A program made the position numbers and the translations under genes. DNA of 39,769 nucleotides from a virus (lineage: Duplodnaviria > Heunggongvirae > Uroviricota > Caudoviricetes). The DNA is taken from the IMG/VR virus record IMGVR_UViG_2541047701_000005, positions 1 to 39,769 of that record. One strand, given 5' to 3'. How positions within the stretch are numbered: position 1 is the first letter of the stretch; every line of letters starts with the position of its first letter. Below the pieces are notes generated by a model. It was given only the letters and a program-made list of their open reading frames with translations. It was not told where the DNA came from and searched no databases. Positions 1 through 24,249 of the stretch are shown here, in pieces.

Positions 1-2175
1 TCATTTCACCACCCAACCAGAATTCCAGCGACCTGATTCTTTGATGTAGAGTCTTCCATTTACGATATCTCGATACTCGCTTCCAGGTGTGGCTATTTGT
101 ACTCCTTCAGGATTTCCAGTGCCAGCAATTATACTGTAACTAACGTCTGTGGCTAAATTCCTAACAATGTTAGCAGGAGGGTAAACGTTATCTGCAACAA
201 TAATATTTGAGCAACTTGCTGTTACATCTACAAAAAACTCATTGCTTATCGAGTTGTGATAACAGTTGTTACTAATCACACCATTTTTAGCAGATGAATC
301 AATACCTATAACTGCGTCTCCAGTTATAGATTCAAATGAATTTGATGTCACAGTGAATCCGTGGCATTCGCAGTTAATATGGACGGCTCTTCTTCCGTTC
401 ATTGCTGTATTACCTACAATTGATATGTTTCTACTTAACAAAGTTCCTTTGTATTCGCCATCATCCTCAAATATATAGAATATCGCCTTAGTCGTATCAA
501 CTTTATTGTTGCTTGCAATCACATTAGCAATGTAATTCCCTCTAAGGAATATCCCATTACATGAATCGACTGTGTTTCCAGTGATGGAAACTCCGTCAAC
601 CCATCTCATATCAAGAATGGTGCCATCACAGGACTCAAAATTATTTCCTGATATCCTCCAGTCTCTGTGAAATATTCTACTACCTTTCAATCCGCTCTCA
701 ATAAATGTTGGTGTAAGGCATGATATCACAGAATTTCCAGTGCAATTTTTAAATGTATTATGATGTATACACACATCTCTTGATGTTTCCCGAAGAGTTG
801 TGCTTACTTTCCTCCCGGTAAATATTATTGCTGGATTAGTGAAGTTTATAAATGTGTTTGAACCAATGTCAACATTTTCCCACCTAGAAAAGCCACGAAT
901 GCCAGAATAAGAATTACCATCAAAAGTACAATGGTGGATTTTTATATCAATAACTGGCTGCGCTCCATCTGTTGAACCGTGATTCCCTACGCCAACAGCC
1001 CATGACGGTAGAGATTCTGACGGTCCAAAATAACAACCAGACACTTTAATGCTAGCGATATTATCATTGCTGGACAATGGTGTTTCAATCTGAATAGCAT
1101 CTGAAAAACGTCTGTTACCTGCCCAATCCATAAACCCCATAAAACGGCAGTTTTCAATACTAACATTTCTCACGCGAGACAAGTCTATAGCATGCGCCCC
1201 AGAAACATTAAGGAATGTGCAATCCCGAAATATAATCCCATTAGTAAAAACAAATTCAAATATACTGGCTTGGTTTTTGTATATATTGCCATTGTTATTA
1301 AAAACACCACCAAATACAGATATATTATTACCACATTCGACTTCAGATGTGTATATGCAAGCAAATGTATTTACACCTGTGTCTGAATTATCAAAAGCAC
1401 GAATAATAGTTGCACCTCGTAGATGTAAACTTGTGTTTGAGTATATCATTATTTTTTTTGTTATTTTTATAAGCCATTCACTACGAAAAGTTAAATTCAA
1501 ACATCCGTTTATCTTTGCGATATTTAAAGCATTCTGTAAGGCATCGCTATCGTCGCTTACACCATCACCTGTAACCCCAAACCATGACGGTGAAACCTCA
1601 TTCCCGTAAACCCTCTTCCACCTTCTACCGTTAAAACCTACAAGAATTGTTCCGTCATTATCTTCTGATGTCGTATCTGTTGGGTCAGCATAGAACACCC
1701 CATCACCGCCATCGAACAAATTATTTCTTCCATAACAGATTATTTTGTCATTTGTGCCATTATATGAACGTATGTCTGTATAATTACCACCTCCTAAATA
1801 CGATACCCCGTCAATCTGATTTAGTTTCTGCTGAAAAATGTCTGGATCATACTTCAGCACATTCGGAAAATAGAACTGCTGCGCACCATACGCATCATAA
1901 ACAGCCATAGAATGGCCTTGCACAGTTACGAACTTGGCAATCTGTCCGTTATATACCGGATATCCAGCAGCGTTAATGATGATTGGTTGCGAAACAGGAA
2001 CGTGAGAACCGTCTTCGTTCTCCACATAAACCTGAATCTGGTTTTCAGGATTTACCGGGTCAGTGTCAATTTTACCGATATAAATTTTGCCATTGGCTAC
2101 GGCTTTAAAAGAACGCGCCATAGTGAAGAGTTGCGAAGGCATACTCACTACAACATTGGCTGTAATGTCTGTCAT
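1..2175 (-). CDS. Tailspike protein: P22 gp9-type N-terminal capsid-binding domain fused to a divergent beta-helix receptor-binding domain
   Basis: 724-aa ORF. First ~110 aa ([11 protein letters not shown]...NVLKYDPD) closely match the P22 tailspike head-binding domain as I recall it; the rest is Asn/Gly/Cys-rich with repeats typical of right-handed beta-helix tailspikes. Located at the distal end of the virion operon. Confidence 0.85.
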
Positions 2176-2307
2176 TTAATTTGCTCCAGATACAAGGAAT
2201 CACCGCAGCGTGGCTACGGTTGGTATTTGTTGCATACCGAAACGGTACGATTGTTGATTTGTACAGTAGGTTTTACGATGCCATTCCACCCATTTGGTGA
2301 GGCATTG

Positions 2308-2565
2308 ATGATGTACAGCAAATACGATGAGGCGCAGTTCCACTTGAGGCTTACGCACGAGTTGCACGCTAAGATTAAGCAGCGTGCAAAAATGAATAAC
2401 AGGTCTATCAATTCCGAAATTGTGGCTACGATGGAAGAATCACTCTCCAAACCATCACCTGTAAGCGGGTATCGTGATGAAGAAGAGAGATTGGCCTCAT
2501 TAATCTCGGAGCGAGTAAAAGAAGTTGCGGCTGATATCCTTAGAAAAGAAAAAACCCGCGATTAA
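2308..2565 (+). CDS. mnt: Mnt-like ribbon-helix-helix repressor (85 aa)
   Basis: Internal ATG of listed ORF 1912..2565, preceded by GGTGAGG RBS. NNRSINSEIVATMEESLSKPSPVSGYRDEEERLA resembles P22 Mnt (NGRSMNSELL...SKPSPVTGYRNDAERLA). The upstream part of the listed ORF is antisense to the tailspike gene and not coding. Confidence 0.7.
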   Translation: MMYSKYDEAQFHLRLTHELHAKIKQRAKMNNRSINSEIVATMEESLSKPSPVSGYRDEEERLASLISERVKEVAADILRKEKTRD

Positions 2566-2573
2566 GCGGGTTT
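2530..2573 (-). terminator. Intrinsic terminator of the antirepressor operon (8-bp stem AAACCCGC/GCGGGTTT, loop GATTAA, U-tract on minus strand)
   Basis: Perfect inverted repeat at 2552-2573; on the minus strand it is followed by TTTTTTCTTTTCT. It overlaps the 3' end of the convergent mnt-like gene. Confidence 0.6.
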
Positions 2574-2579
2574 AGTTGG

Positions 2580-2801
2580 TTAGTTATCAAAAAGTCCGTA
2601 CGTTTCTTCTTCTTCAGGTGTAAGGGGAAGAATCTCTACTCTATCTATAGATACCTTTTCAATGTACCCATGAGGTCTACTTAAAATTAAAGCTCTCTCA
2701 TGCCACAGAACTCCAAGAATGTGATACCTTCCAGCATCGCCTTTTACCCTGGCTCTTCCTTTGATTCTTGGCGGCATAATGCCATATTTTTTCTTTGCCA
2801 T
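2580..2801 (-). CDS. Hypothetical protein (73 aa), last gene of antirepressor operon
   Basis: ATG start overlaps the stop of the upstream Ant gene (TAATG coupling). No recognisable motif. Confidence 0.5.
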   Translation of the reverse strand: MAKKKYGIMPPRIKGRARVKGDAGRYHILGVLWHERALILSRPHGYIEKVSIDRVEILPLTPEEEETYGLFDN

Positions 2802-3526
2802 TATGCAACATTACTCCCATGAATCAGGTGTTGTAGTGCTTTAACACCTTCCTCATTGTAGCGGAACGCTTCCACCTGTTTGCTGGAATGCGCAGATTTA
2901 TCCAGGAAGAACTTCCCGTACTGCTCAGTTTTGAGGTTGTTTGCGTTAGCAATGCGACCAATCTTGTTGGCCGTTACTCCAAGCTGCTCTGCAACCTCCC
3001 CTGCTGAGTAGTAATGCTCTTCTATTGCCGGAAGAGGTATTGCATTAAAACCAACGAGCGGGTTGATTATACTTGCTGCCGCTGTCTGCTTTGCCTCCGG
3101 CGCAAGATTTGGCATCAGATCGAACAGATTGGTAACAGCTTCAACCGTCATTTTCAATGTTCGCGCTTGACGATACTCAACAAGTCCACTCGCTGATTTA
3201 CCGCTTTTAATGTGCGCTTCCTGCATACTTTCAAGTTTGTCTACAAGTGTTCGGCGAACTGCTTTAGATTCGCGAGCAGCAACACGAAGCGCCTGCTTGA
3301 TAGTCATGGAGATAACATCAATGTCAGCCCCGTTTTTCCGACCTACACTTTTTGTGTAGGTCTCGCCTTCCAATTCATCCTCAATTTTCTCGATGAATTT
3401 GTTGTTACGTACTGATGGCTCTCCACATAACTTGCGAGCTTCATTAACCATCATCAGAAGACTTTGGCTGTCAATGGTTTTATCCGTGACAACGGATCCG
3501 ATGTTTGCTACATTCTTAAAAGTCAT
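2801..3526 (-). CDS. ant: Antirepressor Ant (KilAC/AntB-type C-terminal domain), 241 aa
   Basis: Start chosen at internal ATG 3526 (MTFKNVANIG...) with AAGGAA RBS. C-terminal region YSAGEVAEQLGVTANKIGRIANANNL...FRYNEEGV is typical of phage antirepressor C-terminal domains. Confidence 0.6.
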   Translation of the reverse strand: MTFKNVANIGSVVTDKTIDSQSLLMMVNEARKLCGEPSVRNNKFIEKIEDELEGETYTKSVGRKNGADIDVISMTIKQALRVAARESKAVRRTLVDKLESMQEAHIKSGKSASGLVEYRQARTLKMTVEAVTNLFDLMPNLAPEAKQTAAASIINPLVGFNAIPLPAIEEHYYSAGEVAEQLGVTANKIGRIANANNLKTEQYGKFFLDKSAHSSKQVEAFRYNEEGVKALQHLIHGSNVA

Positions 3527-3594
3527 TAGGCATTCCTTATGTGGTAGTAAGGGTGTGACATAGGCCGCCAGCAGCACACTGGCGGTTTTCTTTT
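3521..3594 (+). ncRNA. Candidate sar-like antisense RNA covering the ant RBS and start codon
   Basis: Plus-strand promoter-like GTGACA (3486-3491), 17-nt spacer, TGcTACATT extended -10 (3506-3514). Plus-strand intrinsic terminator CCGCCAG-CAGCACA-CTGGCGG (3565-3585) followed by TTTTCTTTT. Predicted ~70-75 nt transcript antisense to the ant translation initiation region, analogous to P22 sar. Confidence 0.35.
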
Positions 3595-3613
3595 GCGCCG
3601 TCCTGTGCACCAA

Positions 3614-4240
3614 TCAATGAATCCATTCCTCGCCGCGAAGTTTTGCCAGCATTGGCTGAGCGTTCTTTACGACAAAATTGTTGGTATCAAGATTCTTCAT
3701 TTCACGAAGAAGTGATTTCTTGGTTTCTTCTGACATGTAGCGAGTCTCATATGCAATATCGTAAATCCTTCCTGAAAGCTCAGAACCAATTTGCTTCATT
3801 CCTGGGTAGATGTGTTTGCACATTTGTTGACTCTTCTCCATCCACAATTGTAAGTAGCAGAGATTAACCAGTTCTTCGTCAGTAAACTGTTTTGCAATCG
3901 GTGAGCATTCTGCCTGCCGATCCAAAATATCCAGCACCCAGCGGCGGAACTCTTTGGCTACCGGAGTGCGAGCAAACATCGCGATTAGGTGGGCACCGCG
4001 TAGTGAGAAAACTCGCACTTTTTTGCGATAATTTCCTGAGGTACTCACTTCGAGTACCTGAGTCATTCCGGCGCTAAACTCATCGCTATACTTGTTATAA
4101 ATCATTGTTACTGCACGACTATTTGCGTATTTAAGTGCAGATGCAATATTAGATGATGTAAACCAAACACCATGCATATCACGGGTGGGCACCAACTCAA
4201 CTCCGTGGAAGTTGTAATCTGATTTTGCTACAATATTCAT
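3614..4240 (-). CDS. Bro-N domain protein (antirepressor N-terminal-type), 208 aa
   Basis: Start at internal ATG 4240 (MNIVAKSDYNFHG...) with AGGAAA RBS. Motifs HGVWFTSSNIASALKY...FRRWVLDIL are typical of Bro-N/AntA domains. Same frame as the downstream Ant ORF, separated by one TGA and 87 nt. Confidence 0.6.
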   Translation of the reverse strand: MNIVAKSDYNFHGVELVPTRDMHGVWFTSSNIASALKYANSRAVTMIYNKYSDEFSAGMTQVLEVSTSGNYRKKVRVFSLRGAHLIAMFARTPVAKEFRRWVLDILDRQAECSPIAKQFTDEELVNLCYLQLWMEKSQQMCKHIYPGMKQIGSELSGRIYDIAYETRYMSEETKKSLLREMKNLDTNNFVVKNAQPMLAKLRGEEWIH

Positions 4241-4313
4241 GTTAGTTTCCTTGCATACGGTTACTGACATAGAGGCCCGGTTTGTGTTCGCGCACTGCCG
4301 GGCTTCACTATTT

Positions 4314-4487
4314 TTATTGGATGACAACATCGCCCTTTGCCTCAAGTTTCATCAATAACTCCATTCGATAAGCTATCTCTGCCTGAATTGACCTATGGCA
4401 TCTTTTTGCTGATTCGCGGATATGTGAATCAACCTTTTCTGTAAAACGAACCTGACGCGGCTTGATGGAAGATATCTTTTCAGTCAT
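4314..4487 (-). CDS. arc: Arc-like ribbon-helix-helix repressor (57 aa), first gene of antirepressor operon
   Basis: Not in ORF track (<60 aa). ATG at 4487 with AGGAG RBS 7 nt upstream. Translation MTEKISSIKPRQVRFTEKVDSHIRESAKRCHRSIQAEIAYRMELLMKLEAKGDVVIQ has a beta-strand then two helices like Arc/MetJ family proteins. Confidence 0.55.
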   Translation of the reverse strand: MTEKISSIKPRQVRFTEKVDSHIRESAKRCHRSIQAEIAYRMELLMKLEAKGDVVIQ

Positions 4488-4586
4488 TATGCACTCCTGT
4501 TTTTAAAAAACTCATAATCTCACTTTTTGTAGTTTGATTATTCACTCACACTCACTATGAGTCAATGAATTTTTTATGGTGAACTA
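4488..4586. promoter_or_regulatory. Divergent promoter/operator region (Pant-like leftward; promoter of CI-like paralog rightward)
   Basis: 99-bp AT-rich intergenic region between divergent genes. Contains repeated CTCACT/ACTCA motifs and the inverted repeat ACTCA-cta-TGAGT. Confidence 0.35.
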
Positions 4587-5228
4587 ATGAATTTTGACGA
4601 TCAATTCCCATCAAGAGTATCTCTGGCAAGACAGTCCAGGGGTATGACGCAGGCGCAGTTGTCGAAATTAGCTGGTGTTGTTCAACGTCAAATAGCTGCA
4701 TACGAGGGTGGTGAGGCTAAACCACGGCTTCGGGTATTGCAGGCATTAGCCAACGCATTAGGTACTACGGCTGAGTGGTTAGCTCTAGGTGAAGGTCAGG
4801 GTCCGGGAACAAAAAACGTCATGCCTGACGTTCTGGTAAAGCAAATACCAATCCTCAAACTAGATGAAGTTATGCATTACCTAAACACAGGTGAACATTC
4901 ATCGTCTAGATTTCATCCAGCAATATACAATGTTGGTGACTCTGCATTTGCATTGACTATTGAAGGTGAAGCTATGACTACAAGTTCAGGTATTAGTTTT
5001 CCCAGAGGATCGGTTGTCACGTTCAGCCCTCTAGTAAAAGCTAAAAGCAAAGATTATGTAATAGCATCATTGGATAAAGAGCAAATATTGAGCTTCAAAC
5101 AGGTTTACATTGGTGAAATAGAGACAAACCTAGTATCCCTAAACCCAATGTATCCTAATATTCTTGTTAGAAATGAAGATGTTAGTATTTTGGCAACCGC
5201 AGTTTACCTTGAAATCCCGTTGCTTTGA
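4587..5228 (+). CDS. CI-like repressor paralog: HTH (XRE-type) N-terminal domain plus lambda-CI-like C-terminal (S24-type) domain lacking the catalytic Ser
   Basis: 213 aa. N-terminus RGMTQAQLSKLAGVVQRQIAAYEGG is an HTH. C-terminal DSAFALTIEGEAMTTSSGISFPRG...SFKQV...LNPMYPNIL aligns by eye with lambda [28 protein letters not shown]...FTFKKL...LNPQYPMIP; the Ser149 position is Ala and there is no Ala-Gly cleavage site in the linker. Confidence 0.6.
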   Translation: MNFDDQFPSRVSLARQSRGMTQAQLSKLAGVVQRQIAAYEGGEAKPRLRVLQALANALGTTAEWLALGEGQGPGTKNVMPDVLVKQIPILKLDEVMHYLNTGEHSSSRFHPAIYNVGDSAFALTIEGEAMTTSSGISFPRGSVVTFSPLVKAKSKDYVIASLDKEQILSFKQVYIGEIETNLVSLNPMYPNILVRNEDVSILATAVYLEIPLL

Positions 5229-5288
5229 TATCCTTTAGGAAGCAACACATTATCATCTGGTATCCTGCACAAAACTAAGGAGGTTGGT

Positions 5289-5702: not shown

Positions 5703-7532
5703 TTACTGCTGTGTTGCCTCAGTAGCAAACAGCGGTCTGATGGCATTCGCAGCATTATTCAGCGCTCTTTCATAAGCTGGCGTTCCAGCTTTAGTGTTTG
5801 CCAGACGTAAGAGCGCATTCCTTGTTGCTTTGGACTCATACAGGCGCATCATTGCACCGAAACCAGATTCAAGCGCCAGTGTTGCCCCAAGAGTCGCAGT
5901 TGCGCCAATCGTCCTTATCCTGTTAGCTTGCGATTGCCCCGTCTGAGTTACTACATTTGCGGTGTCTGACCTTGCTGTTTGCTGTAGAACTTCATGAAGA
6001 GCATCAAGCTCTTTCATGTGTCTCCCACTGAATATCGTGTTATAGATCTGACCGTCAGATTGCGACTTCAACTTATTTAACTCGGTAAGAAATTTTGTTG
6101 GCGAGTCTCCTGCTTTTTCTGCAATCTTGCTGATATAAGCAGCACGCATAGCGTTCTTTCCATCTTCACTAAGAGCAGGCCATATCCTCTTAATATCTGA
6201 TGGTTTTCTGCTGAATACAACGCTGTTTATTAGCTCTGGAGTAAACTCTTTTTTAGCTTTGTTGAGATTATTCGCAATCCTTTTATTGAGAACCTTATTG
6301 AAGACGTTGGAGTAGTCAGAGTTTGCTTTGACGTATCTGGCGGCCTCTCCAGCCCCCAAATACCGCGCTGCGTTATTCCTCAAATCTGCCCCCATTGCCC
6401 TCTCCACGGCATCAGTTGCGGCTTTCGCGCTATTAGGAAAAACCATGGCATCTCCCTGAATGCTTTCCCTCAAGGCTGACCGCAACTCTCTCAATAGACC
6501 AAAATCTATATCTGGTTTAGCAAGTTCTTCTCGCAAATCGGATAACCCGCGAATCAAATCCTTATTTGCCACTTTCCCAAGCCTGTTAGCTCTGGTAAGT
6601 ACGTTGTCGATAACCTTAATAGATTTTGATGTGTCAACTGGCGTGTCTCCCATTTTGGTTGTAATGTCTTCAATAACGCTTCCGGCCGACTCCTTCCTTG
6701 ACTTCAGAGAACCATACAGATCGTCAACAACAACTGATGGGCTGTATTCACCATATTTCTCAAGCTGTTTTTTAACTAGCTGACTTCTTTTTGCATACTG
6801 CTCAGCTCGCTTTGAGCCTGTTCCCAGCAAAGCCCCCTCAGCATCCTGAGTAAGACCACGAGTGAAAGCATTTTTCGGCGGGATAACATCAGATGTCATT
6901 GGTGTCACGCCCATCGATTCTGATGTGGCAATTTTCTTCGCCACTTCTGGCGCAATATCACCTTTTATAGCCGTTATTCCACGCCCTATTCCCTTTGCTG
7001 CTGCGGAAAGAACACCCTGAGCGGCAAGGTTAACTCCGGCATTTTTAGCTGCATTTTGTGCGAAATCACCTTTCTGATTTGCGGCCTCTGCCAGTGATCC
7101 AATAGCCATGCTTCCTGCCGTTCCAACTCCTGGAACTAAATACCCGCCAATTGTTTCTCCAGCTTGAGCGTAGGGGTCTGTCGGTCGATCGACTGGACGA
7201 TAGACATCATCCAAAACCTTGGGGCCACCAAGCCCCTGACTGATTGCATTAATCAGACTTGCGCCACCCTGCAATACGTCAAATGGTATGTTTACCAGAC
7301 CACGACCAGCCTGTTCTGCAATTTGCCCTGCACTTTGACCACCAGTGAGCCAATCGCCAGCTTGTTGCATCAATGATGGTTCTTCCCGTGTTGGTGCATT
7401 ATTGGCCTGATTAACTGTTTGTTGCTGAACAGCCTGACCAGCAAAATACTCATCAATGGCGGTGCCAATATCTTCCGTGCTCGTACCATCAGGGAAGGTA
7501 AATGTCTTACCGTTTGCAGTTACTTTCATCAT
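5703..7532 (-). CDS. Ejection (injection) protein, P22 gp16-like
   Basis: 609 aa, the same length as P22 gp16, and in the conserved position in the P22-like gene order (7-20-16). Confidence 0.8.
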
Positions 7533-8941
7533 TCCACCGTAAATTGAATGCCTGATTTTGAGGTATATGATCCAACCTGACTCCGTGGTTCTCCTGAAGG
7601 TGTCGAATCTTGTGCTGGCGCTGCGTCAGTATTCATTGACATATACCGCTTAACGGCACTCCCCAATGATTCACCTTTTTTAACATCCAACCCCAATATC
7701 TGACCGCCATTACGCGATTGTCCAGGGTTGCCATTCTCGCTCATCCACTCGGCTTTAAACTCATTAAACTGCGCGTTTCGTCGCTCAAGGTTTGCCATTG
7801 CATCAAGCCATCTTGCGACCGTCTCAGGGTTATCCATGTCAGTTGGCGCACCCTGTCTAACGATCTCAACGTCTTTATCCGTTGCTGGGCCGGGAGGTAG
7901 GAATTTAAGAACCTGACTGTTAACAAGGGCATTTTGGCGAATGCGCAAATCACGCAATGTCGTATCGCTTCCGGTAAGTTTTGCGAACATGTTCTGTGCG
8001 TTACCGAACAAACCTGTCGTTGGTTTTTCTGCTCTGAACTGTTGAGCAAGCGCACTCATGGAATTGGCTGAGTTTGATGATGCTGTGGCATTGTTTACAG
8101 CCGTCTCGATTCCTTTTTCCATGTTTACTGACAGCTTAGGTGCTTCGCTAATCAACTGCTGAGCCTTTTCCTGCGCTTGCTGCATCTTAAACCCGAACTC
8201 TTGCTGATCCAGAGCCAAGCGTTGTGCTGCGATATTGTGCCCAGTCATTGCTGACTGATAGGAAAGGTTTTGCCCTCTCGCCTGAAGTGCTTCACCAGCC
8301 TGATTGCTGCGGATTGTCTCTGCCAGCCTGCCTCGGTCAATTTCACGACCAGCCATCTTGTCCTGAACATTGAAGTAATCAATCGGACCAAGTGCAGCCA
8401 TTCCAAGGTGATCAACAAACTCACCAAATCCTGAAGGGTTCTGCTGATACATCTGAGCAACGCTGTTAGGGTCAACACCGACGCGAGTCAGTTCCTTGGC
8501 GTTGTTTTGCAGCCATGATTGCATTGCTTCTGGAGACGAGGCCGCAAGGCGTGCGCCAGCCGCTAAGGTGCCGATAGAATTGCGCTGGTCTTCGTCTGCC
8601 CACTTCATACCAGACTGAATCTTCTCTAATTGACGAGGATATTTGGTCATCAGATCTCGAACCTGCTGTCGATCACCGGACTGGATGGCTGCCGCATATT
8701 CTTTTTGGAATGCAGCATCCGCTTCCTGTTGCTTTGCGGCTTGATATGTTTGAGCGACACTACCAAGTCCCTGCAACGCCTGAAGGCCGATGTTATTGCG
8801 ACCTGAACGCTCCATTTCGTTGTTCTGGCGAATATAGGCCAACGCCTCACTTACATCACTTGCCTTTGGCGCATTTGAGTTTTGCCCACCGATACCAGCA
8901 AGAAAACCGCCTGAGTTGATTCCTTGTTGCCAAGTAGCCAT
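7529..8941 (-). CDS. Ejection protein, P22 gp20-like
   Basis: 470 aa (P22 gp20 ~471 aa), Gln/Ala-rich, position between gp7 and gp16 homologs, overlapping stop/start. Confidence 0.8.
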
Positions 8942-8950
8942 ATTCCCACC

Positions 8951-9625
8951 TTAAAACAATGATCCAAGACCACCGATAATACCGCCACCAATAGCGCCAA
9001 CAGCTGTACCTATTCCAGGTACCACAGAGCCAATCATCGCCCCTGATGCCGCACCGCTCATGGCACCTCCCAAGGCTGATTGCAGTCCTGATGGTCGGTT
9101 AGCATTAGCCGCAGATGCTGCTGCCTGCTGTTGATACAACTGGCTGACGTTGTTGGCGTAGTTCTGCCCGGCGTTTGCCTGACCTGTAAGAGCACCAAGG
9201 CCGATATTTGCCAGATTGTTGTAGTTGTTCATCTGACCTGACAGCCAGTTTTGACCGAGTGTAGGTGCGATTGCTGCTAACTGGTTTCCTGTTGCTGTAG
9301 AGCCTAATCCACCCGTTGCCTCTGCTGCTGCCAGACTCTGGTAACGCGCCTGCCCTGCAAGGTCTTTATACTGCTGGGAGTTGTAATACTGGTTAAGCGC
9401 CTGACCTTGCCCCTGAAGAGAGGAAAGATTCTGCAACTGTGATACGTACTGCTGAGCGAGTGGCGTGAACGGTGCAAGGTTTTGCATGTTCGTCTGCCAC
9501 ATTTCACGCTGCAGTTCGATGCCCTTTTCAGTTGCGCGTGCCTGGGCTTTTGAACCGCCATCACTGCCACCTTTGCAGTAAACAGTTTTGCTGAGGTGCT
9601 TATTGGCAATCTGGAAAATTAACAT
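8951..9625 (-). CDS. Ejection protein, P22 gp7-like
   Basis: 224 aa, GAGGAG RBS, Gly/Ala/Gln-rich with C-terminal Gly-rich hydrophobic segment; conserved position. Confidence 0.75.
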   Translation of the reverse strand: MLIFQIANKHLSKTVYCKGGSDGGSKAQARATEKGIELQREMWQTNMQNLAPFTPLAQQYVSQLQNLSSLQGQGQALNQYYNSQQYKDLAGQARYQSLAAAEATGGLGSTATGNQLAAIAPTLGQNWLSGQMNNYNNLANIGLGALTGQANAGQNYANNVSQLYQQQAAASAANANRPSGLQSALGGAMSGAASGAMIGSVVPGIGTAVGAIGGGIIGGLGSLF

Positions 9626-10082
9626 TCTTTAGCTCCTCGTATTTTGAGCGCGGTAACTGATAAATCGTGATGCCTACAGGCTTTCCATTGCTGGTATAAG
9701 CATCATCAAGGTGACCAACACGGGTAGCGCCAAGCAAACGGATAATTGCCCGTCCGTATTTCGTTGTGTCAGGAACCATGGTGATGCTGTTAAGGAATGG
9801 TGAGTTTTCGAGAAGCCATTTGCAGAATAATCGATGCCCTTGCAGTGCATATTCACCACGGAATCCGGGGTCGTACACCGCATGGCATTCAACAACGCTA
9901 TGCCAGAAGTTACGCACTTCATGAACGCCAGCCAGCACTAATCCTTCGTAGATGCCGAGGTATACCGCATCAGGCTTGATGTAGTATTTATCTCCACTGT
10001 CTACGATATTTCCCGTGTTTGCCGGGTTGTTAAGGAATTCTGCAAGCTTCACCGGATTATCGATGAGCTTTATTTCCATCAC
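9600..10082 (-). CDS. P22 gp14-like protein (DNA-ejection/assembly associated)
   Basis: 160 aa, located between tail needle and gp7 homologs as gene 14 is in P22. Confidence 0.65.
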
Positions 10083-11032
10083 TGCTCCGCAATGATTTTG
10101 ATGGTTGTGGCAGTAAACGCCGCACCATTTGACTGAATGGTTAACGTACTGCCATTTGTGGCAAGAAAGCCGTCTTTATCCACACTGAAGAACGTAGCTA
10201 ACAGGATGTTATCGGTCGTTGTCGCCGAGTTGCGACTGCTTACCAGTGTGTCAGGAACAGATCCGGAAAAGGTTAGCTGAATTGACCTGTTGGCGGTTCC
10301 GCTGGGCCACGCCCCGACGATCGACAGCTTGAAGAACAAGGTTTTGTTCTCGTTGAACACAACCATCTTGTTGTTAACGGTGTCGAAGAATGGTGCCAAC
10401 GTGCCGGATGCCGGCGTGAGCGTTTTCAGCAGGCTAACAAGGTTGGTCGGCGCTGTCGGGATGGTTACTGATACGCCAGAGTAAACAACCTCTGACTTCT
10501 TGCGAGTAGTGGCATACTCAAGCGCAGATATTCTTGTTGAGTGATCACCAACTGTGCTTTGAAGCGTCGAAATGCTTCCTTCAGCCGCTGTTAGCCTGGT
10601 ATCCAGTGCGTCGATATCTGTTGCATTCTGAGTTATGCGCGCATCATGGTTTGCTAACTCAGATTCATTGGCAGCAATTCGCGTCTCGTGATCAGCCAGC
10701 TCTGTTTCGGCAGCCGTAATCCTTGTTTCATGATCTGCAAGAGTGCTTTCCGCTGCTGTGATTCTATGTTCATGATTGACGAGAGTTTCTTCAGCAGTTT
10801 CAATTCTGGATTCATGGTCTGCAAGGGTGACATCCTGCTCATCATTCTTCACCTGTGCATCGTAAGCGCCCTTCCCTGCTTCGTTGGCCTTGTTCGCCAC
10901 GTTACCAACATCAGTGCCCTGTGCAATAACGTACAGCAGATACGACTGCGAGAAGATATTGCGTGGAAGGACTGATGTATCGAGCCGCGTAGCCTGGATG
11001 ATTACCGGCTCATTGAGATTCGAATCAGCCAT
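10079..11032 (-). CDS. Tail needle (P22 gp26-like) with extended C-terminal domain
   Basis: Start at internal ATG ([43 protein letters not shown]...) which closely matches the P22 gp26 N-terminus. Trimeric coiled-coil repeats (DHESRIE, NHEHRIT, DHETRIT...). 317 aa versus ~233 aa in P22. Confidence 0.85.
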
Positions 11033-12450
11033 TACTCGATCCTTATCTGGCAACCAGACAGAGTGACAGGTGACTTGGTGATAACGCGCAATTTGAAACC
11101 GACATTTTTCCTGATGCGCCCTACTCGCTTCCACAAAACGCGTTTGTCGTAAACGAACGGTTCATTCTGCTCAATCATCTGCTCACGCCCGTAATTGATG
11201 CCGTCAGTGGTTGCAGAGAGGAACAGGCGGTCGGCGTACTGAGCTACGCCAGTGGATGATTCCACCTCCAGATCGAAGCATCTGGCGTTATCTGCTTTGA
11301 ACAACGGAGTAAACAGCAGGTGTTCCTGTTGCTTGTCGTACTGGCTGCTGATATCGAACTGCAATTTCCCGGTCACGGACTCCAGCTTATCTCCGCACGT
11401 TATCTGATTGCCTTCATAAATGAAGTCGATAGCGCGGTACACATCGTCATACAGGCCTGTTTTCAACACACACCATTGCGGACCATTGGCGCTTGAAGAT
11501 GCGTCGTACACGAGGACGTGACGCGGAAGATGGATAATCAGCAACTCATGCGCATCAAACCGCAGCGATTCCATTACGCCATCAGCCAGTTCATCAGCAG
11601 TGTAGGAGCGGAGAATTTTCTCAATGCTCGCGCTGGCGATTGGTGATACCTGACCGGAACCGATGATGTACACAGACGGCGCACCTGTTGCCGGATTGCT
11701 GATGAACGCATACGAGTCAGCAAACGGCGTTTTGCAGTAGGTTCCGGCAATGCCTTTCTGCACCATCAGTGATGGCTGGGCGACATACAAAGCAGCACCA
11801 ACGGTGGTTGCACCAGTCAGGGAGAAATATTCAATCGTCGATGAACCAAAGCAGACGATGAAGTCTCGCCATGTGCCGATACCGATGATGCCGTCCGGCT
11901 GCGACTCGGCACGATATTGTGCGCTGTAGCGGTCAGGATGCGATTCATCTTCAAGGTCAGTGATAAACCATGAATCAGTTCCGTCTTTTGACCACGCATA
12001 ACGCCCACGTAAGCGCGTAATATCGCGGACTGAGCCTAACTCATACTGCGTGAATCCGCTGTCTGTAGGCCAGTTTGAGACGGTTTTAACCGTGCCATCA
12101 TAACGATACTCTACCAGTTGACCATTAACGCCTACCGCCTGTGATGTCCTACCATGCGCCATTGATACGCGACCACTTCCGGCAACATCACCGACTTCAC
12201 TTTCGCCTTTGTACAGCCTGCCACCACACACGCGATAAACAGCACTCTGCGCCATGTTGTACTCGACGCCGCGAGATACACCGTTCACATCAGATCGTTT
12301 GGCAATGCCCGGGAATGAGCGAAGATATCCGCTGCTGTTCAGGATTTCTTTGGGTGTAGCCAGCATATTCACTGGCAGATAGTCGATATAGTCGGCGTTT
12401 CGAAAGTCTTTGCCGACACCTTTCATAAGCGGAAGTTGCTGAATCGGCAT
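11032..12450 (-). CDS. Tail hub protein, P22 gp10-like
   Basis: 472 aa (same as P22 gp10), conserved position between gp4 and needle. Confidence 0.8.
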
Positions 12451-12459
12451 TTATTCACC

Positions 12460-12921
12460 TCACGTACTCGGATCATCTTTCTCGATGTAAAACCGATTCC
12501 ACGTAAACGCGCTTTTGTTACCACTACCGCGAGGCATGCCATTTCGCCGCTCAAGTGGTGGTATTTTGGTTAAAGCGATGCAGATTGTCTGATATGCACT
12601 GTCAGCAGCGGTAAGGAGAGCGTCTGACGGCTGAATGACGTTATCCATGCACACCTGCACAGCGAGCTTCAAAGCGACGCCATCATTTGCCCATGCAGGG
12701 ATACCTGAATCATCGTCAGGTAACGGCATGATGCCGTTTTCTGTATCAGCAAACTGATACCCAAGCTCGATACCTTTAGCCTGCCATGCTGCCATCATGT
12801 CTTCGAGGTCATTAATGGCATCTTCAATTGCCTGAGGGTCAGCATCTGTCAACGTGGCATTGGAATACAGCCCAGCTTTTCGTAAAGCCTTTAGAACGAG
12901 ATCACCCTTCGTTTTCGCCAT
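12460..12921 (-). CDS. Tail adaptor / head completion protein, P22 gp4-like
   Basis: 153 aa, position immediately downstream of coat region, N-terminus MAKTKGDLVLKALRKAGL. Confidence 0.75.
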   Translation of the reverse strand: MAKTKGDLVLKALRKAGLYSNATLTDADPQAIEDAINDLEDMMAAWQAKGIELGYQFADTENGIMPLPDDDSGIPAWANDGVALKLAVQVCMDNVIQPSDALLTAADSAYQTICIALTKIPPLERRNGMPRGSGNKSAFTWNRFYIEKDDPST

Positions 12922-13090
12922 CTTCTTCCGCCTTAGCCACTTTTTGCTTCGTTGCGGTTTCTTCAGGAGTTTTCACCCAACCTTTTTTCAGGTGAGATTT
13001 AACTTCTTCGTCATCAACAATGATGTAATCGACAGCAAACTGACCACAGGTGATCATGTTGCCAGGCTTATAGAGCATTGTTCGTGCCAT
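12902..13090 (-). CDS. Small hypothetical protein (62 aa) between coat and gp4
   Basis: Internal ATG at 13090 with GGGAGAAG RBS directly after the coat terminator; acidic C-terminus. Confidence 0.4.
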   Translation of the reverse strand: MARTMLYKPGNMITCGQFAVDYIIVDDEEVKSHLKKGWVKTPEETATKQKVAKAEEDGENEG

Positions 13091-13101
13091 TGTCTTCTCC
13101 C

Positions 13102-13124
13102 AATAAAAATGGGGCCGAAGCCCC
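13102..13124 (-). terminator. Intrinsic terminator after coat gene (GGGGCTTCGGCCCC hairpin plus U-tract)
   Basis: Perfect GC-rich hairpin with UUCG loop immediately after the coat stop codon, followed on the minus strand by ATTTTTATT. Confidence 0.65.
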
Positions 13125-13131
13125 ACCAAAA

Positions 13132-14385
13132 TTACTGCCCGGCAATAACGATGCCCGTATATTCAGGAACAAGTACAGAGCAACCGTACAGGGTGGTGAA
13201 ACGCGCAGTGGTTACGCCTTTGATGTGGTCGAAGGCGTAAGACATGATCAGCGTAGCGCCCTGCTCGGTGGTTGCTGTCATTACCTGTGGACCCTGACCA
13301 GTCGGGAACGCCAGTTTGCCGAACATCAGCTCAACAGAACCATCAGCCCAGAACAGGTTAGCCGGTGCGGCATTCTTGTTGAGAATGGTAATTGCTGCAC
13401 CATTTGACGCGTTAGCATCAACGTTTGCATATGGACGGCTGGCGACATCTGCGTTGTCAGGCGGAAGAATTTTCGGGGAGATAGTTACTGTCGTTCCGCT
13501 TACTGCCAGAACGCGGAATACCTGCGGCTGCCCGGTGGTGTCTTTGGTGATCTGGTGTACAGAATTCACGCCAGCAATGGTGAACGCATCGCCAACCTGC
13601 AAACCAGATGCAGATACCGTAATGGTCCCCTGTCGGTTATCCACTGGCATATCGTTGGCATCTTTCGCTTCAACCTTGTGCGCAGGTTCCGCCGCCAGTG
13701 TCAGGGAAGTTGCTGTACCCTTCGGAACACGACCAGAAATATCGGTCTTGTAGCTATCGAAGGACGCAACCGGAGGGATCTGCGCTTTTTCGTATGCTGT
13801 CAGGGTTGCGCCCTGAGCATAGGCACGGTGACCAAGCTCGCCAGCAAGGTCTTTGTAGTTGAAGGGGTTCCAGAAAGAGCGACGGTTGATACCCTGCGGT
13901 ACACCAATCGCCGTCATGGTGGCATCAATACCTGCCGCACAGTTCCACAAATCACGGCCCTGTGAACCAGTGGTTGAGTCAGCCATTGTGATCACGTTAG
14001 TAGCACGCTGCGTGACCATGGAAATCAGGTCAGAGTCAATCTGTGCAGCAAGGCGCATACCTGCGGCTCGACCAGCTTCAGTTTTATGTTCCGGGTCACG
14101 CATTTCACGCGCATCCAGAGTGTACAGAATGTTTTTCGGCTCCTTGAACACAGAAGGAACAAGGCGCTGAACCAGTGCTGTAGGCGTTTTGCCGCTGAGA
14201 TCGAGGCCTTCTTCAATGTTCATGTGGTAATGCTGCGGACGATACAGAACATCACCTGCTCGCTGCATTGCGGTATCACCGGGACGGAATTTTTTAGCGT
14301 TACGGGAAACTACGCAGGCGGCCTCAAAGCCTTCAACGTAGTTTTCGAACATGATTTCAAGGTCTTTTGCTAATTGGTTAGCCAT
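13132..14385 (-). CDS. Major capsid (coat) protein, P22 gp5-like
   Basis: 417 aa; position after scaffold; C-terminal region resembles P22-family coat proteins. Confidence 0.85.
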   Translation of the reverse strand: MANQLAKDLEIMFENYVEGFEAACVVSRNAKKFRPGDTAMQRAGDVLYRPQHYHMNIEEGLDLSGKTPTALVQRLVPSVFKEPKNILYTLDAREMRDPEHKTEAGRAAGMRLAAQIDSDLISMVTQRATNVITMADSTTGSQGRDLWNCAAGIDATMTAIGVPQGINRRSFWNPFNYKDLAGELGHRAYAQGATLTAYEKAQIPPVASFDSYKTDISGRVPKGTATSLTLAAEPAHKVEAKDANDMPVDNRQGTITVSASGLQVGDAFTIAGVNSVHQITKDTTGQPQVFRVLAVSGTTVTISPKILPPDNADVASRPYANVDANASNGAAITILNKNAAPANLFWADGSVELMFGKLAFPTGQGPQVMTATTEQGATLIMSYAFDHIKGVTTARFTTLYGCSVLVPEYTGIVIAGQ

Positions 14386-14403
14386 GCTTAATGCTCCGAT
14401 AGG

Positions 14404-15297
14404 TTATTTTTTTGCCTTTTTAGCGGCGAAATACGGCGTCCAGTCACCAGTTTCCAGCGCCTTGGCTTTAAGTTTGTCGAGGTTGTTGATTACTGCGCCG
14501 TTGCTCCACTTAACTGTCGGGGTTGTGGCTGCCGTGGTTTTTGCTTTTGGCATGATTCTGGCCTTCGATTCGATACGTTCCAGCAGACGACCAATTGCTA
14601 CGGGGTTGGTAGCTTCTGCCAGTTGCTTGCGCAGTTCAGCGTTGCGACCGAGCGCCAGAACAACGATTTCCGGCTTCTCTGACTCAAACAGGATCGCGTT
14701 TTGTGTCTCGATGGGGATTTCCTCGAGTACGGCCTGTTCTGCTTCCTGATAGCCAGGAACTTTGAGAGCCTTAACACGTTGCTGATATTTGGATAATCGC
14801 TCTTGATAGGCAGCCTGAAGCTCCTGCTCCTTCTGCTTGCGAGCCATCTCCTGTTGCTGGTACTTGCCGTTATCCTCTGCCCACTTAGCCATGCGTTGCT
14901 GGTAGATTTCTTCATCGAAACCGATGTCCTCATCGTCCAGTTTTGGCATTCGCGGTGGTTGAGTGATTACCGGCTGCTGCTCTACGGGTTTCTGAGACTG
15001 ACGCATCAGCTCTTTCAGCTCGCGGTCTTTCTCTTTAATCGTCTTGCGCAGGTGTTTTACCAGTCCATGCTCTGCGCCATCTTCGCTGGTTGGCGAATCC
15101 AGCTTTTCGTCACCAAAGTAGAATTCCTGTTCTGATTCGTCGTCATCAGTTTCAGTATCTTCCTCTGCATCATTGCCGGAGGACTCTCTGCCATCTTCTG
15201 TTTCGACTTCTTCAGCCCGTTCGACATCATCAGGAATCTGCTCTGACGCGTCGGTTTCGATTTCAACTTCTGGTGTGTTTTCTGCCATCTGGTCCAT
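14404..15297 (-). CDS. Scaffolding protein, P22 gp8-like
   Basis: 297 aa, highly acidic N-terminus, helical charged middle, basic C-terminal tail; between portal and coat. Confidence 0.8.
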   Translation of the reverse strand: MDQMAENTPEVEIETDASEQIPDDVERAEEVETEDGRESSGNDAEEDTETDDDESEQEFYFGDEKLDSPTSEDGAEHGLVKHLRKTIKEKDRELKELMRQSQKPVEQQPVITQPPRMPKLDDEDIGFDEEIYQQRMAKWAEDNGKYQQQEMARKQKEQELQAAYQERLSKYQQRVKALKVPGYQEAEQAVLEEIPIETQNAILFESEKPEIVVLALGRNAELRKQLAEATNPVAIGRLLERIESKARIMPKAKTTAATTPTVKWSNGAVINNLDKLKAKALETGDWTPYFAAKKAKK

Positions 15298-15387
15298 TTG
15301 TTACCCCTGTTTACTCGATGTTCAGCCCATCGGAAGGCAATAGGGCGCCAGGCCTCATAAAGACAGCCATTGCACGTTATGGGTTAA

Positions 15388-21399
<6,012 letters not shown>

Positions 21400-21401
21400 G
21401 T

Positions 21402-21644
21402 TTATGCTCCGGTAGTGAACAGGTCTGACGCTTCCTTCGATTTACGCACCGCTTCGATAGTGCGGGTCGTGATATCTGAATTAGCGCCGCCTGACTGGAA
21501 GTGAATTTTGAATAGCTCAAGCTTCAGCTCGTCAGTGCCGATGAATTGAAATGCTTCTTCTGCGGCTGCGTTCTGGTTCATGACCAGTTTGTAAATCTCT
21601 AGCTGGAATTTCTGTTCTTCAGTCATGGGAATAATCTCTGCCAT
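21402..21644 (-). CDS. Hypothetical protein (80 aa)
   Basis: ORF directly upstream of TerS, no recognisable motif. Confidence 0.4.
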   Translation of the reverse strand: MAEIIPMTEEQKFQLEIYKLVMNQNAAAEEAFQFIGTDELKLELFKIHFQSGGANSDITTRTIEAVRKSKEASDLFTTGA

Positions 21645-21900
21645 TGTTGGCTCCGTTTATCCGTTAAAAGGGATATCAGTTAAGTTATCCCGTGTAGGGT
21701 ATAAGCCATTGTCGAGACCACTCATTGAATGGCCTCTGCAATAACCGATGTCTTTCCATCAGTCCGCCACCACAAAGAATCTTTTTTGCCATAAGGCAGG
21801 AGGTTCATCTTTCAGTGGCTGCCAGTGTTATTTCCCCACTTACTGGCTTGGGTTGTTTCGCTGTACTGCCGTAATGCAAAAACTGGATTAACCTGCGAAA

Positions 21901-22431
21901 TCACACCATTCCGGGCAAATACATTTGCACTTCATTTGCCGCTCTCTCACGTGCAACATGAAGCAATCTTTTTCGCCCACCAACGCCCCACTTAGCCATT
22001 TGGCTTGCGCACTGGCTTATCGCTTTGGTTTCAGTATTGATGATGTGATCGATTCTATTCAGACGGGACATTGCGCCAACGCCGAGACGGACAACCGTTT
22101 TGAAAACTTCATAAACTTCGATTTCAAATTCCGGCTTAATCCATGCTGCATATCTGATTGCCAGAAGTTCAACACCCCACACACCTGGTTCTGCACCACC
22201 TTTGATTATTTTAAGTGGTTGAATTTGTTCCAAAGTGCTTTTTTGCACTTTGGCCTCCAGTGCTTTTATGAAGCGTTTTATCTGCGCGCTACGCAAAAAC
22301 TGGCTTGGGCGCTGTTGCTCTGTAGCCTCTCCATTTGCAACTGCTGCTGCATGGAGATCGTTTAAGTTGTAGCGTCCATCCTCATCAACACGAACGGACA
22401 CACCATTGACAATAACTGTTGGGTACTTCAT
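21901..22431 (-). CDS. KilA-N domain protein (moron between lysis and packaging genes)
   Basis: 176 aa; VSVRVDEDGRYNLNDLHAAA...GVWGVELLAIRYAAWIKPEFEIEVYEVF resembles KilA-N/APSES-type domains; flanked by ~200-250 bp non-coding DNA on both sides. Confidence 0.55.
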   Translation of the reverse strand: MKYPTVIVNGVSVRVDEDGRYNLNDLHAAAVANGEATEQQRPSQFLRSAQIKRFIKALEAKVQKSTLEQIQPLKIIKGGAEPGVWGVELLAIRYAAWIKPEFEIEVYEVFKTVVRLGVGAMSRLNRIDHIINTETKAISQCASQMAKWGVGGRKRLLHVARERAANEVQMYLPGMV

Positions 22432-22633
22432 CAGTGATCACCTTTTAGTGATGAACCTTGTCACACAGGATTCCGGCCCACAGAAAGGCACCGATCACCA
22501 AACCGGCATCCTCAAGGGTCATCCTGAAAGGTTCTGTGTTCATAAGTCGCGCGTGTGAAGCGCGTTTACTGCGGACATAAAAAAGCCCCGCATCGCGAGG
22601 CTCATTAAATGGACTTTGTGATTTGCAAAAAAA

Positions 22634-23071
22634 TTATTTCAGGCACTGAGTCCTGATGTACTCCTGCAGGTAGTTAACCTGCGCGGTTATCCTGTCGATT
22701 CCACTTCGGAGACGGTAATAATTGAGTTCAGCATCTGCTGTAAGTCTTGGGCTTTCTCCATCGCCCATGCTGCTGGCTCCGGTCGTTGACTTTGCACAGG
22801 TGGCGGAGACTTGCAGGCGCTTACGACCAGCAGAAACATCAGCACGGAGACTTTCGATAGTCGCGTTAGCATCAGCAAGCTCCTTTGTGTATCTGGCGTC
22901 GAGTTCTGCTACATCACGTTGACGCTTCTGCATGTCAGCGATGATGGATGTGACTTTATCGCGCTGCTCTTTGTAGGTCATGGCGTTATCACGGTAATGA
23001 TTAACCGCCCATGACAGGCAGACGATGATGCAGATAACCAGAGCGGAGATAATCGCGGTTAACCTGCTCAT
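22634..23071 (-). CDS. Rz: Spanin inner-membrane subunit Rz
   Basis: [30 protein letters not shown]... is near-identical in its N-terminus to lambda Rz; start overlaps the endolysin stop. Confidence 0.9.
22687..22878 (-). CDS. Rz1: Spanin outer-membrane lipoprotein subunit Rz1 (embedded in Rz, +1 frame)
   Basis: Embedded ORF with lipobox VVSAC and Pro-rich segment ([16 protein letters not shown]), as in lambda Rz1. Confidence 0.8.
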
Positions 23072-23571
23072 TGTTGCCCCCACAAACAGACTTCACGCTC
23101 AATCTCACGACGGGTCATCAGCCCTTTCCATTGCTTACCGCCAGCGTATGTCCAGCGCCGTAGCTGATCACATGCGCCCTTGATATCGCCCTGGTTTATT
23201 TTGCGAAGAAGCGTCGATGTTCTGAAATTGCCTGTGCCCACGTTATAGACGAACGAGTAAAGAGCGCCGCGCGTTGTTTCCGGTATATCGACTTTGATGT
23301 ACGGGTTAATTTGTCTGGCGACCGTGGCAAGGTCTTTATTCAGGAGGGCTTTGCATTCTGCTTCGGTATACGTTTTACCGAGCATGATGTCTTTTCCGGT
23401 GTGTCCGTGGCATACAGTCCATACACCAACAATATCTTTGTATGGTATGTAGCTGACACCTTCCAGACCATCGTTACCACTTGGTCCAGTGATTAACACA
23501 GATGCTATAGCAATAGCCCCGCCACTTATCGCCGCTATTACGCTATTTCGTAGTGCCGGTGACATTGCCAT
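23068..23571 (-). CDS. R: SAR endolysin (T4-lysozyme-type, phage 21 R-like)
   Basis: 167 aa; N-terminal Gly/Ala-rich signal-anchor-release segment [17 protein letters not shown] and catalytic region [25 protein letters not shown]; near-identical to phage 21 R as I recall it. Confidence 0.9.
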
Positions 23572-23746
23572 TCAATCTGTCCTCGCGCTCTTTGCGCTTG
23601 TAGTACCAGTTGATGCCAAATGTGCCGACAGTACAAAGAATACCAATGATGACAGCCCAGTCATTCAGGGAGAGAATGCCACCCATCGCAGTCAGTCCTC
23701 CGAAGCTGTAACTGAACCATTCTCTGATTTTGTCCATACGGTACAT
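23543..23746 (-). CDS. S: Class II holin (pinholin-like) with dual-start motif
   Basis: 67 aa; N-terminus MYRMDK (Met1/Met4 dual start), two TM segments, basic C-terminus; overlaps the start of the SAR endolysin. Confidence 0.8.
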
Positions 23747-23989
23747 GCTCTACCCCTTCATTGAGGGGATTTGCTCTATTTAATTAGGAATAAGGTCGAT
23801 TACTGATAGAACAAATCCAGGCTACTGTGTTTAGTAATCAGATTTGTTCGTTACCGATATGCACGGGCAAAACGGCAGGAGGTTGTTAGCGCAGCCTCTT
23901 GCCACCCGCTTTCACGAAGGTCATATGTAGAAGGCCGCAGCATAACTATCACTGATGAATTCAGGATAGCCAGTGGCTACGGCTCAGTT

Positions 23990-24070
23990 TGGGTTGTGGC
24001 GGCCGGAATCGAACCGGCTTCCATCGGTGCGCTGCCGATTGCAGTACGCGCGGCGGTCAGCTACATGACT
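23990..24070 (-). other. tRNA-like element (probable degenerate tRNA or tRNA remnant)
   Basis: Minus-strand canonical T-arm GCCGG-TTCGATT-CCGGC followed by CGCCACA-A-CC, and an anticodon-arm-like hairpin ATCGG-CAGCGCA-CCGAT 4 nt upstream of the T-stem. No convincing D-arm or acceptor 5' strand at the expected distance. Coordinates approximate. Confidence 0.3.
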
Positions 24071-24194
24071 AGTATTTTCACTATCGCCTATCTGCTAGCT
24101 CGCCATTGAGATTCACCACAACGATAAGAGCACTGCGCGGCACCTTTCACCAATTCCGCGAGGTCTGCGGGTTCAATGCTCTTACCTGTTGTGC

Positions 24195-24239
24195 AAATAA
24201 AAAAGCCACCGTTGCAACTTAAGAGTCACTAACGGCAGC
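24195..24239 (-). terminator. tR'-like intrinsic terminator downstream of pR'
   Basis: Minus-strand hairpin GCTGCCGTT...AACGGTGGC (with wobble pairs, internal palindrome GTTGCAAC) followed by TTTTTTATTT. Confidence 0.5.
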
Positions 24240-24249
24240 TTACCTTCTA

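Follow-up and report, generated by a model that had tools for sequence, protein, structure and literature searches.

A P22-like prophage tailspike that joins a conserved head-binding domain to a PfbA-like beta-helix, with the K2 capsule as candidate receptor

The 39,769-nt stretch of Caudoviricetes DNA analysed here (IMG/VR record IMGVR_UViG_2541047701_000005; hereafter the window) starts with the three bases of the stop codon of a tailspike gene, a minus-strand open reading frame (ORF) of 724 amino acids. The ORF matches PHROG 2234, 'tail spike protein' (E 5.5e-172), and RefSeq already annotates it as 'phage tailspike protein' (WP_021518010.1, Escherichia coli MS15236 record). That P22-like phages combine an adaptor with an exchangeable receptor-destroying module is textbook knowledge. 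New here are a module without a characterised close relative, its membership in the functionally orphan PfbA-like family and genomic evidence pointing to the K2 capsule. The full statement, that the ORF encodes the receptor-binding tailspike of a temperate P22-like podophage whose single most likely receptor is K2, seems to us about evenly poised between right and wrong.

Architecture of the tailspike

Residues 1–112 match the Pfam Head_binding domain (PF09008) with an E-value of 2.4e-66, which places the protein among the P22 gp9-type tailspikes. Their matches in the PDB are Sf6 gp14 (7sg7) and the P22 tailspike (2vky, 1lkt, 8tvr), at E 1e-45 to 1e-65, and identities counted from the alignments are ~93% to Sf6 gp14 over residues 1–112 and ~75% to N-terminal fragments of the P22 tailspike. 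The Sf6 and P22 solved-chain matches stop at residues 114–118, with none further on, in agreement with an earlier note, made from the letters and ORFs only, that had confined the P22-type domain to the first ~110 residues. When the gene was compared by megablast with 50,697 phage records, 32 records matched, every one limited to nt ~1814–2175 and with match ends spread over nt 1814–1850; no record in that set covers the rest of the gene. We are therefore highly confident of a recombination boundary near residue 112–120 that joins the gp9-type domain to a foreign cassette, a confidence that applies jointly to the domain architecture, the family membership, the boundary and the module exchange described below.

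The ~610 residues beyond the boundary had been described as a single Asn/Gly/Cys-rich, beta-helix-like domain. Their composition fits that description (10.5% Asn, 10.1% Gly and 2.8% Cys, or 17 Cys, over residues 113–724, as against no Cys in residues 1–112), and so does the fold in an AlphaFold2 monomer model, but they make up more than one domain: a linker, a D3'-type neck, the beta-helix and a C-terminal domain (Table 1). The lower GC (guanine plus cytosine) content claimed for this part also holds, at 0.374 over nt 1–1839 (0.289 at third codon positions, GC3) against 0.4375 for the head-binding part (nt 1840–2175), 0.497 for the virion genes at 6000–26000 and 0.470 for the whole window.

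In the linker, the model places a helix at residues 111–118, followed by a low-confidence stretch. The neck, residues ~132–193, aligns by phmmer with residues 42–132 of the Acinetobacter phage AM24 tailspike (5W5P, E 3.9e-16), in which residues 37–96 form the D3' domain; in CBA120 TSP2 and TSP4 and in the Acinetobacter phage spikes, D3' always precedes the beta-helix (PMC7506556). This part of the protein thus both resembles a solved D3' domain in sequence and stands immediately ahead of the beta-helix. The Pfam family PF27114 was precomputed for the 724-residue cluster representative, and our local Pfam copy gave no PF27114 match. Model confidence in the neck (predicted local distance difference test, pLDDT) is about 77–88. 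Compared with the D3' necks of CBA120 TSP2 and TSP4, AM24 (5W5P), Fri1 (6C72) and AS12 (6EU4), this one occupies the same place before a beta-helix, whereas it follows a P22-type head-binding domain, and the downstream helices of those spikes are related to ours by fold only. Because copies ~50% identical to the neck occur in otherwise unrelated tailspikes (P0019, P0022, P0028 and P0025, a Proteus P22-type spike), the neck appears to be a shuffling unit on its own.

Over residues 194–660 the block-mean pLDDT is mostly 80–97, with low-confidence loops at 265–281 and 493–499, and on the strength of the model we take the right-handed beta-helix predicted from residue 194 to be real. It carries an N-cap motif and a ladder of conserved Asn at nine positions (440, 473, 511, 534, 557, 589, 612, 637 and 663) spaced 23–38 residues apart. 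In the C-terminal domain, homologues keep the consensus G.PEGV..A..GS......GG.....Y.KESG.G.TGWV.K, with G707 invariant, and the model has strands at 680–723 (pLDDT about 79–90). By analogy with other tailspikes, this domain probably stabilises the trimer.

Table 1. Parts of the tailspike gene and codons of its putative active centre, in window coordinates
Feature	Coordinates	Strand	Remarks
Tailspike gene	1..2175	minus	724 codons plus stop at 1-3; single ORF, ATG start
P22 gp9-type head-binding (particle-binding) domain, residues 1-112	1840..2175	minus	Pfam PF09008
Linker with short helix, residues 113-131	1783..1839	minus	end of similarity to other P22-like tailspikes
Small beta 'neck', D3' type (PF27114 Phage_tail_beta), residues ~132-193	1597..1782	minus	phmmer match to 5W5P
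Right-handed parallel beta-helix, PfbA-like family, residues 194 to ~665	181..1596	minus	presumed polysaccharide-binding/cleaving domain
Short C-terminal beta domain, residues ~666-724	4..180	minus	family consensus and model strands
Putative active-centre codons	979..1194	minus	H328 1192-1194, D331 1183-1185, D359 1099-1101
Putative active-centre codons, continued		minus	Q362 1090-1092, E364 1084-1086, H399 979-981

The beta-helix family and its exchange between phages

The beta-helix almost certainly belongs to the PfbA-like family of right-handed beta-helices, with which it shares sequence similarity across the helix, the same fold and a conserved centre. The match to PfbA of Streptococcus pneumoniae (PDB 3ZPP, 4MR0) reaches E 1.7e-12 in a single-sequence phmmer search and E 6.5e-72 with a profile of 42 homologues, and the N-cap motif and conserved centre are common to the tailspike, PfbA and 'non-classified' CAZy relatives. 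The two proteins differ in that PfbA, a bacterial adhesin, is anchored in the cell wall and crystallised as a monomer, whereas the tailspike belongs to a phage virion, carries a particle-binding domain and presumably trimerises through its C-terminus. Among 1.84 billion cluster representatives, searched exhaustively with HMMER, 923 related clusters were found at E <= 1e-3, only 31 of them at E <= 1e-30; because the nearest clusters are 55% and the next 34% identical, the module sits on an isolated branch.

Conservation across 108 homologues concentrates on a small group of residues. H328, Q362, G397 and H399 are 100% conserved, D331 is kept in 86%, and position 359 is Glu in 96% and Asp here; E364 lies within an IQIE/IQLD motif in which the aligned sequences have Glu or Asp, and it falls below the 60% threshold for a single residue. 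In the HMMER alignment, H328, D331, Q362, E364 and H399 correspond to PfbA H293, Q296, Q331, E333 and H377 (the numbering of chain and paper differs by 117, consistently at all five positions checked), so that position 331 is Asp in the tailspike and Gln in PfbA. Those five PfbA residues are the 'putative active centre' of the structure paper (PMC3718772). The motifs HA(I/L)D ... (D/E)(A/S)IQ(I/L)(E/D) ... GCYFGP ... G(V/I)GNH recur in the second tailspike of phage vKMB47 and in Bacillus phage SPO1 gp18.3. From the sequence pattern, H328, D331, D359, Q362, E364 and H399, on three successive coils, are likely a catalytic or binding centre. The module was also set against polysaccharide lyases with a beta-helix (K1 lyase 7W1C, K5 lyase, RbmB and AlgE4-type epimerase/lyase). 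RbmB is the third-best profile match in the PDB, through an alignment limited to the N-cap and generic repeats, which does not bring its catalytic K227/E253 region together with the conserved centre.

The closest relatives of the module are carried on a different adaptor. Two metagenome-derived tailspikes, P0003 (55% identical from residue 194) and P0004 (50% from about residue 138), resemble ours over the whole beta-helix and C-terminal domain and have a Tail_spike_N (TSP1/gp66-type) adaptor in place of the P22 head-binding domain. Their genes adjoin tape-measure and tail-assembly chaperone genes on contigs of 43–48 kb, and the carriers are siphoviruses. The GC content of these modules is 48–49%, against 37% here, and that of the Vectrevirus homologue is 41%; we looked among the homologous modules for a donor of matching low GC and identified none.

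Among GenBank phages the closest relatives are the second tailspikes of the Vectrevirus phages LL11, vKMB47 and vB_EcoP-101101UKE1, at 26–27% identity over 85% of residues 120–724, and the LL11 tailspike is also the best viral fold match (target-normalised template-modelling score, TM-score, 0.82). They have the same active-centre motifs on a T7-like adaptor, with neither a head-binding nor a D3' domain, and at ~27% identity their specificity may differ. In the vB-Eco-KMB47 record (OR424385) the second tailspike is a 556-aa ORF (3399–5066 of the extracted stretch), of which only the last 229 codons are annotated (coding sequence 4380–5069), as a 'hypothetical protein'.

A second line of evidence for exchange comes from the prophage of E. 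coli E3, which is 99% identical to window nt 1–2220 and then lacks similarity until nt 5258. The near-identical segment consists of the tailspike gene and 45 nt upstream only, with an unrelated immI region beyond it, and the receptor modules of MS15236 and E3 are 99.5% identical, although the E3 carrier (NZ_CM130010 1826827-1868666) is a different mosaic P22-like prophage, located at dacD/sbcB. Because modules 50–55% identical stand behind a different adaptor on siphovirus spikes and the gene is shared by prophages that are otherwise mosaic, the horizontal exchange proposed in the earlier note is well supported; among P22-like prophages the whole tailspike gene very probably travels as a cassette. 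The module studied here is also carried by three IMG/VR contigs, and its protein cluster has about 70 draft-genome members.

In overall plan the protein resembles P22 gp9, Sf6 gp14, HK620 gp9 and the CUS-3 tailspike, with the same conserved adaptor and swappable receptor-destroying domain, the same place in the genome, next to the immI/arc region where the virion module ends, and the same breakpoint after ~residue 112, where the matching part of the CUS-3 record bears the annotation 'boundary sequence'. It differs from them in its extra D3'-type neck and in a receptor module unrelated in sequence to the P22/Sf6 endorhamnosidase, the HK620 endo-N-acetylglucosaminidase and the CUS-3 endosialidase.

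Candidate receptors

With sensitive blastn included, we found the receptor module in 2 of 5,426 complete E. coli genomes, MS15236 and E3. The O-antigen cluster of MS15236 has O6 wzx/wzy and that of E3 has rmlBDAC with an O18-family wzx; the chromosomal backbones are only 96–97% identical, and the two strains are separate lineages with unrelated O antigens. A prophage receptor-binding protein that is found across serogroups most likely recognises some other receptor (Pas et al. 2023, PMC10408124), and the pattern of one receptor-binding subtype per O serogroup that those authors use does not appear here (O6 versus O18-family, n=2). This speaks against the O-antigen specificity that the earlier note had assigned to the module. 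Its statement that the domain sets the host range survives as a reasonable inference, but the range would probably follow K type in place of O serotype. Nor does the prophage carry genes that modify the O antigen, such as seroconversion genes of the gtr or oac type, which might have accounted for an O-type mismatch.

What the two carriers do share is a K2 group-2 capsule locus, with five region-2 genes, one of them a 3.8-kb gene for a CDP-glycerol glycerophosphotransferase. Between the two strains, region 2 is 99.94% identical (5 mismatches in 7.8 kb), and it is 98.3% identical to that of CFT073 (O6:K2:H1); MS15236 has been typed as sequence type (ST) 127 O6:K2:H31 (Nhu et al. 2024, supplementary file 1). 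A chimeric query detected a K2-type region-2 segment in 141 of the 5,426 genomes (2.6%), both carriers among them, so that the chance of both being K2-type is ~(0.026)^2 = 7e-4 if the two are independent. Sharing of a capsule type by the carriers is what a K2-specific depolymerase predicts, and it is what we see, at n=2. The distant phage homologue fits as well: vKMB47 was propagated on CFT073, a K2 strain, whereas vKMB14, which differs from it mainly in the second spike, does not infect CFT073. The best-known Vectrevirus members, K1-5 and its relatives, are capsule-specific (PMC12488582).

The capsule locus has a history of its own. Because region 2 is 99.94% identical while the backbones differ by 3–4%, the locus itself has moved between the lineages recently. 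Its GC content is 30.6% (L010 8100-15900 / L011 22808-30607). The allele occurs at >=99% identity in ~13 of the 5,426 genomes, namely 11 found by segment plus MS15236 and E3, and in the other 128 K2-type genomes it is 95–99% identical.

Several considerations weigh against K2 and its proposed enzymology. The receptor inference rests on two lysogens and on a 27%-identical phage homologue of unproven receptor, and the surface of a lysogen can change after lysogeny. K2 is a galactose/glycerol-phosphate, teichoic-acid-like polymer that is not known to contain uronic acid, a chemistry for which our support is limited to the glycerophosphotransferase gene and a mention of galactose acetylation in the literature. 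The structural model is poor at the N-terminus, with pLDDT <50 for much of residues 1–110, where the alignment is shallow. PfbA has no recognisable catalytic machinery and showed no lyase activity on a polysaccharide panel (PMC3718772), and our literature search found no paper that assigns an activity, or a proven enzymatic function, to any member of the PfbA family. Lederbergvirus tailspikes, finally, are usually O-antigen specific, and their prophage proteins usually match the serogroup of the host (PMC10408124).

The foremost alternative is an endoglycosidase for the O antigen of one serogroup (O6 or O18-family) that would confine the host range to an O serotype as in P22, Sf6 and HK620. 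Characterised P22-like tailspikes are mostly O-antigen enzymes, MS15236 is O6, and vKMB47, with its distant homologue, grows on an O6 strain. Yet the O clusters of the carriers are unrelated while their receptor modules are 99.5% identical, and by the reasoning of Pas et al. (PMC10408124) such a carrier pattern points elsewhere. We consider this alternative unlikely, at perhaps half the weight of K2. In MS15236 an IS1 insertion sequence (IS) splits a glycosyltransferase gene of the O6 cluster (20290–22272 of the extracted stretch), so that the strain may make an altered O antigen or none, which bears on any reasoning from the O type of this lysogen, the case for K2 included. Overall, the reading of the protein as a K2-capsule depolymerase, with the K2 group-2 capsule rather than the O antigen as receptor, has in our judgement an even chance, and a modest share of the probability belongs to no receptor that we name.

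A depolymerase for a common envelope polysaccharide (colanic acid, enterobacterial common antigen or the lipopolysaccharide core), for which O and K types would be irrelevant, is decidedly improbable. It draws on a match of residues 1–659 to PHROG 8280, 'tail spike protein with colonic acid degradation activity' (E 5.8e-113), on wca clusters in both hosts and on structural neighbours that include lyases of acidic polysaccharides (K1 lyase, 7W1C, and AlgE4). The PHROG match, however, starts at residue 1 and takes in the head-binding domain, which by itself scores 221.5 bits against Pfam Head_binding, the whole PHROG match scoring 380.6 bits. Nor would such a specificity lead one to expect the same capsule locus, present in 2.6% of genomes, in both of the rare carriers, or a module as rare as 2 in 5,426.

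The tailspikes of P22, Sf6, HK620 and CUS-3 sit as trimers on the tail hub and bind polysaccharide chains along the helix; by cutting the chains they allow the virion to descend. By analogy with characterised tailspikes of this architecture, residues 1–112 would dock the trimer onto the tail hub, and the beta-helix would bind a surface polysaccharide along its groove and then cleave it, with H328, D331, D359, Q362, E364 and H399 as the putative catalytic or binding centre. Cleavage would let the virion descend to the outer membrane, and in this way the module could set the host range. If the substrate is K2, cleavage would be hydrolytic (by a glycosidase or a phosphodiesterase) rather than by beta-elimination, because K2 is not known to contain uronic acid.

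The mechanism, as distinct from the receptor, has its own rival. The protein could be a binding-only, lectin-like spike in the manner of its closest solved relative, PfbA, with a conserved cluster that is structural or ligand-binding, and this would fit any receptor. The lack of demonstrated catalytic machinery or activity in PfbA (PMC3718772) and the result of our literature search both favour this idea. We nevertheless give it little credence, since two His and one Gln that are 100% conserved in 108 diverged homologues, among them phage tailspikes of Gram-positive and Gram-negative hosts, are more typical of a catalytic centre, and since related Vectrevirus phages give haloed plaques. P22-like virions, as known from P22, Sf6 and HK620, moreover need receptor destruction to reach the membrane.

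That the module is the canonical P22 endorhamnosidase, diverged past easy recognition, is the least credible reading by a wide margin: alignment to the P22, Sf6 and HK620 chains shows nothing past residue ~118, and the signature motifs are those of PfbA, so the earlier note was right to regard the domain as a different one. A CUS-3-type endosialidase was considered and rejected, the only trace being a sub-threshold, 23-residue match to End_N_terminal that reflects the shared N-cap motif.

A broader and more tentative idea is that the PfbA-like family as a whole consists of enzymes acting on glycosylated polyol-phosphate polymers through a His...(Asp/Glu)-x-x-Gln-x-(Glu/Asp)...His centre, with the present module as the first K2 depolymerase to be identified. 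This family-wide reading, which we regard as doubtful and as considerably less likely than K2 itself, takes in tailspikes of Bacillus and Staphylococcus phages that adsorb to wall teichoic acid, SPO1 gp18.3 among them. If the idea is true, it would assign an activity to an orphan family that CAZy leaves unclassified and would connect coliphages that target capsules with phages of Gram-positive bacteria that target teichoic acid.

The receptor modules of tailspikes decide which strains a phage can infect and are a source of depolymerases against encapsulated pathogens. Among extra-intestinal pathogenic E. coli, K2 capsules are common; CFT073 has one, as does the ST127 meningitis isolate MS15236. 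K2 is absent from a quoted list of K antigens with known phage depolymerases (PMC12488582). If K2 is indeed the receptor, the module would be a ready-made K2-specific probe or enzyme and a first way into the function of the PfbA-like beta-helix family. If it is not, the protein is one more case of the well-known modular exchange in P22-like tailspikes. For genome-based host prediction, our results suggest caution, in that the tailspike of an E. coli P22-like prophage need not report the O serogroup.

The prophage and its neighbourhood

The window is a P22-like prophage cut at the stop codons of its tailspike and integrase genes. Its nt 1–3626 are 100% identical to the MS15236 record, and over its whole length it is 100% identical to NZ_CP082094 1,003,139-1,042,907 except for the place of one IS100. 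The virion genes have 95–96% DNA identity to CUS-3, Kapi1, Sf101 and related phages, and by the MS15236 prophage annotation a P22-like virion gene set (portal, gp4, gp10, needle and ejection proteins) encodes the tailspike beside the immI region. The MS15236 prophage is flanked by torS, which is annotated as carrying a frameshift, and torT. Some ~200 nt of conserved DNA of phage origin follow the tailspike stop in MS15236 and E3 alike, so the end of the prophage lies outside the window. The E3 prophage adjoins the his operon and the O-antigen region, and the torS–torT site of E3 is empty.

Directly upstream of the tailspike, on the opposite (plus) strand, lies an Arc/Mnt-family repressor gene (2311–2565), and beyond it on the minus strand (2580–4345) come small ORFs and then an antirepressor-like gene of Bro-N/P22AR type. 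Together, 2311–4345 form the immI-like region of P22-like phages, which is wholly different between the MS15236-type and E3 prophages.

An IS100 copy (IS21 family) occupies 17620–19574 of the window, with the 5-bp target duplication ACTGG. It interrupts the last ~9 codons of the gene for the terminase large subunit, so that the terminase ORF has 482 aa against 471 aa in MS15236, and it separates the terminase and portal genes by ~2 kb; the copy of the prophage in the window may be packaging-defective. In MS15236 the terminase site is intact, and an IS100 99.5% identical to this one lies at the equivalent of window position 3626, in the antirepressor-like gene, with the duplication ATCCA.

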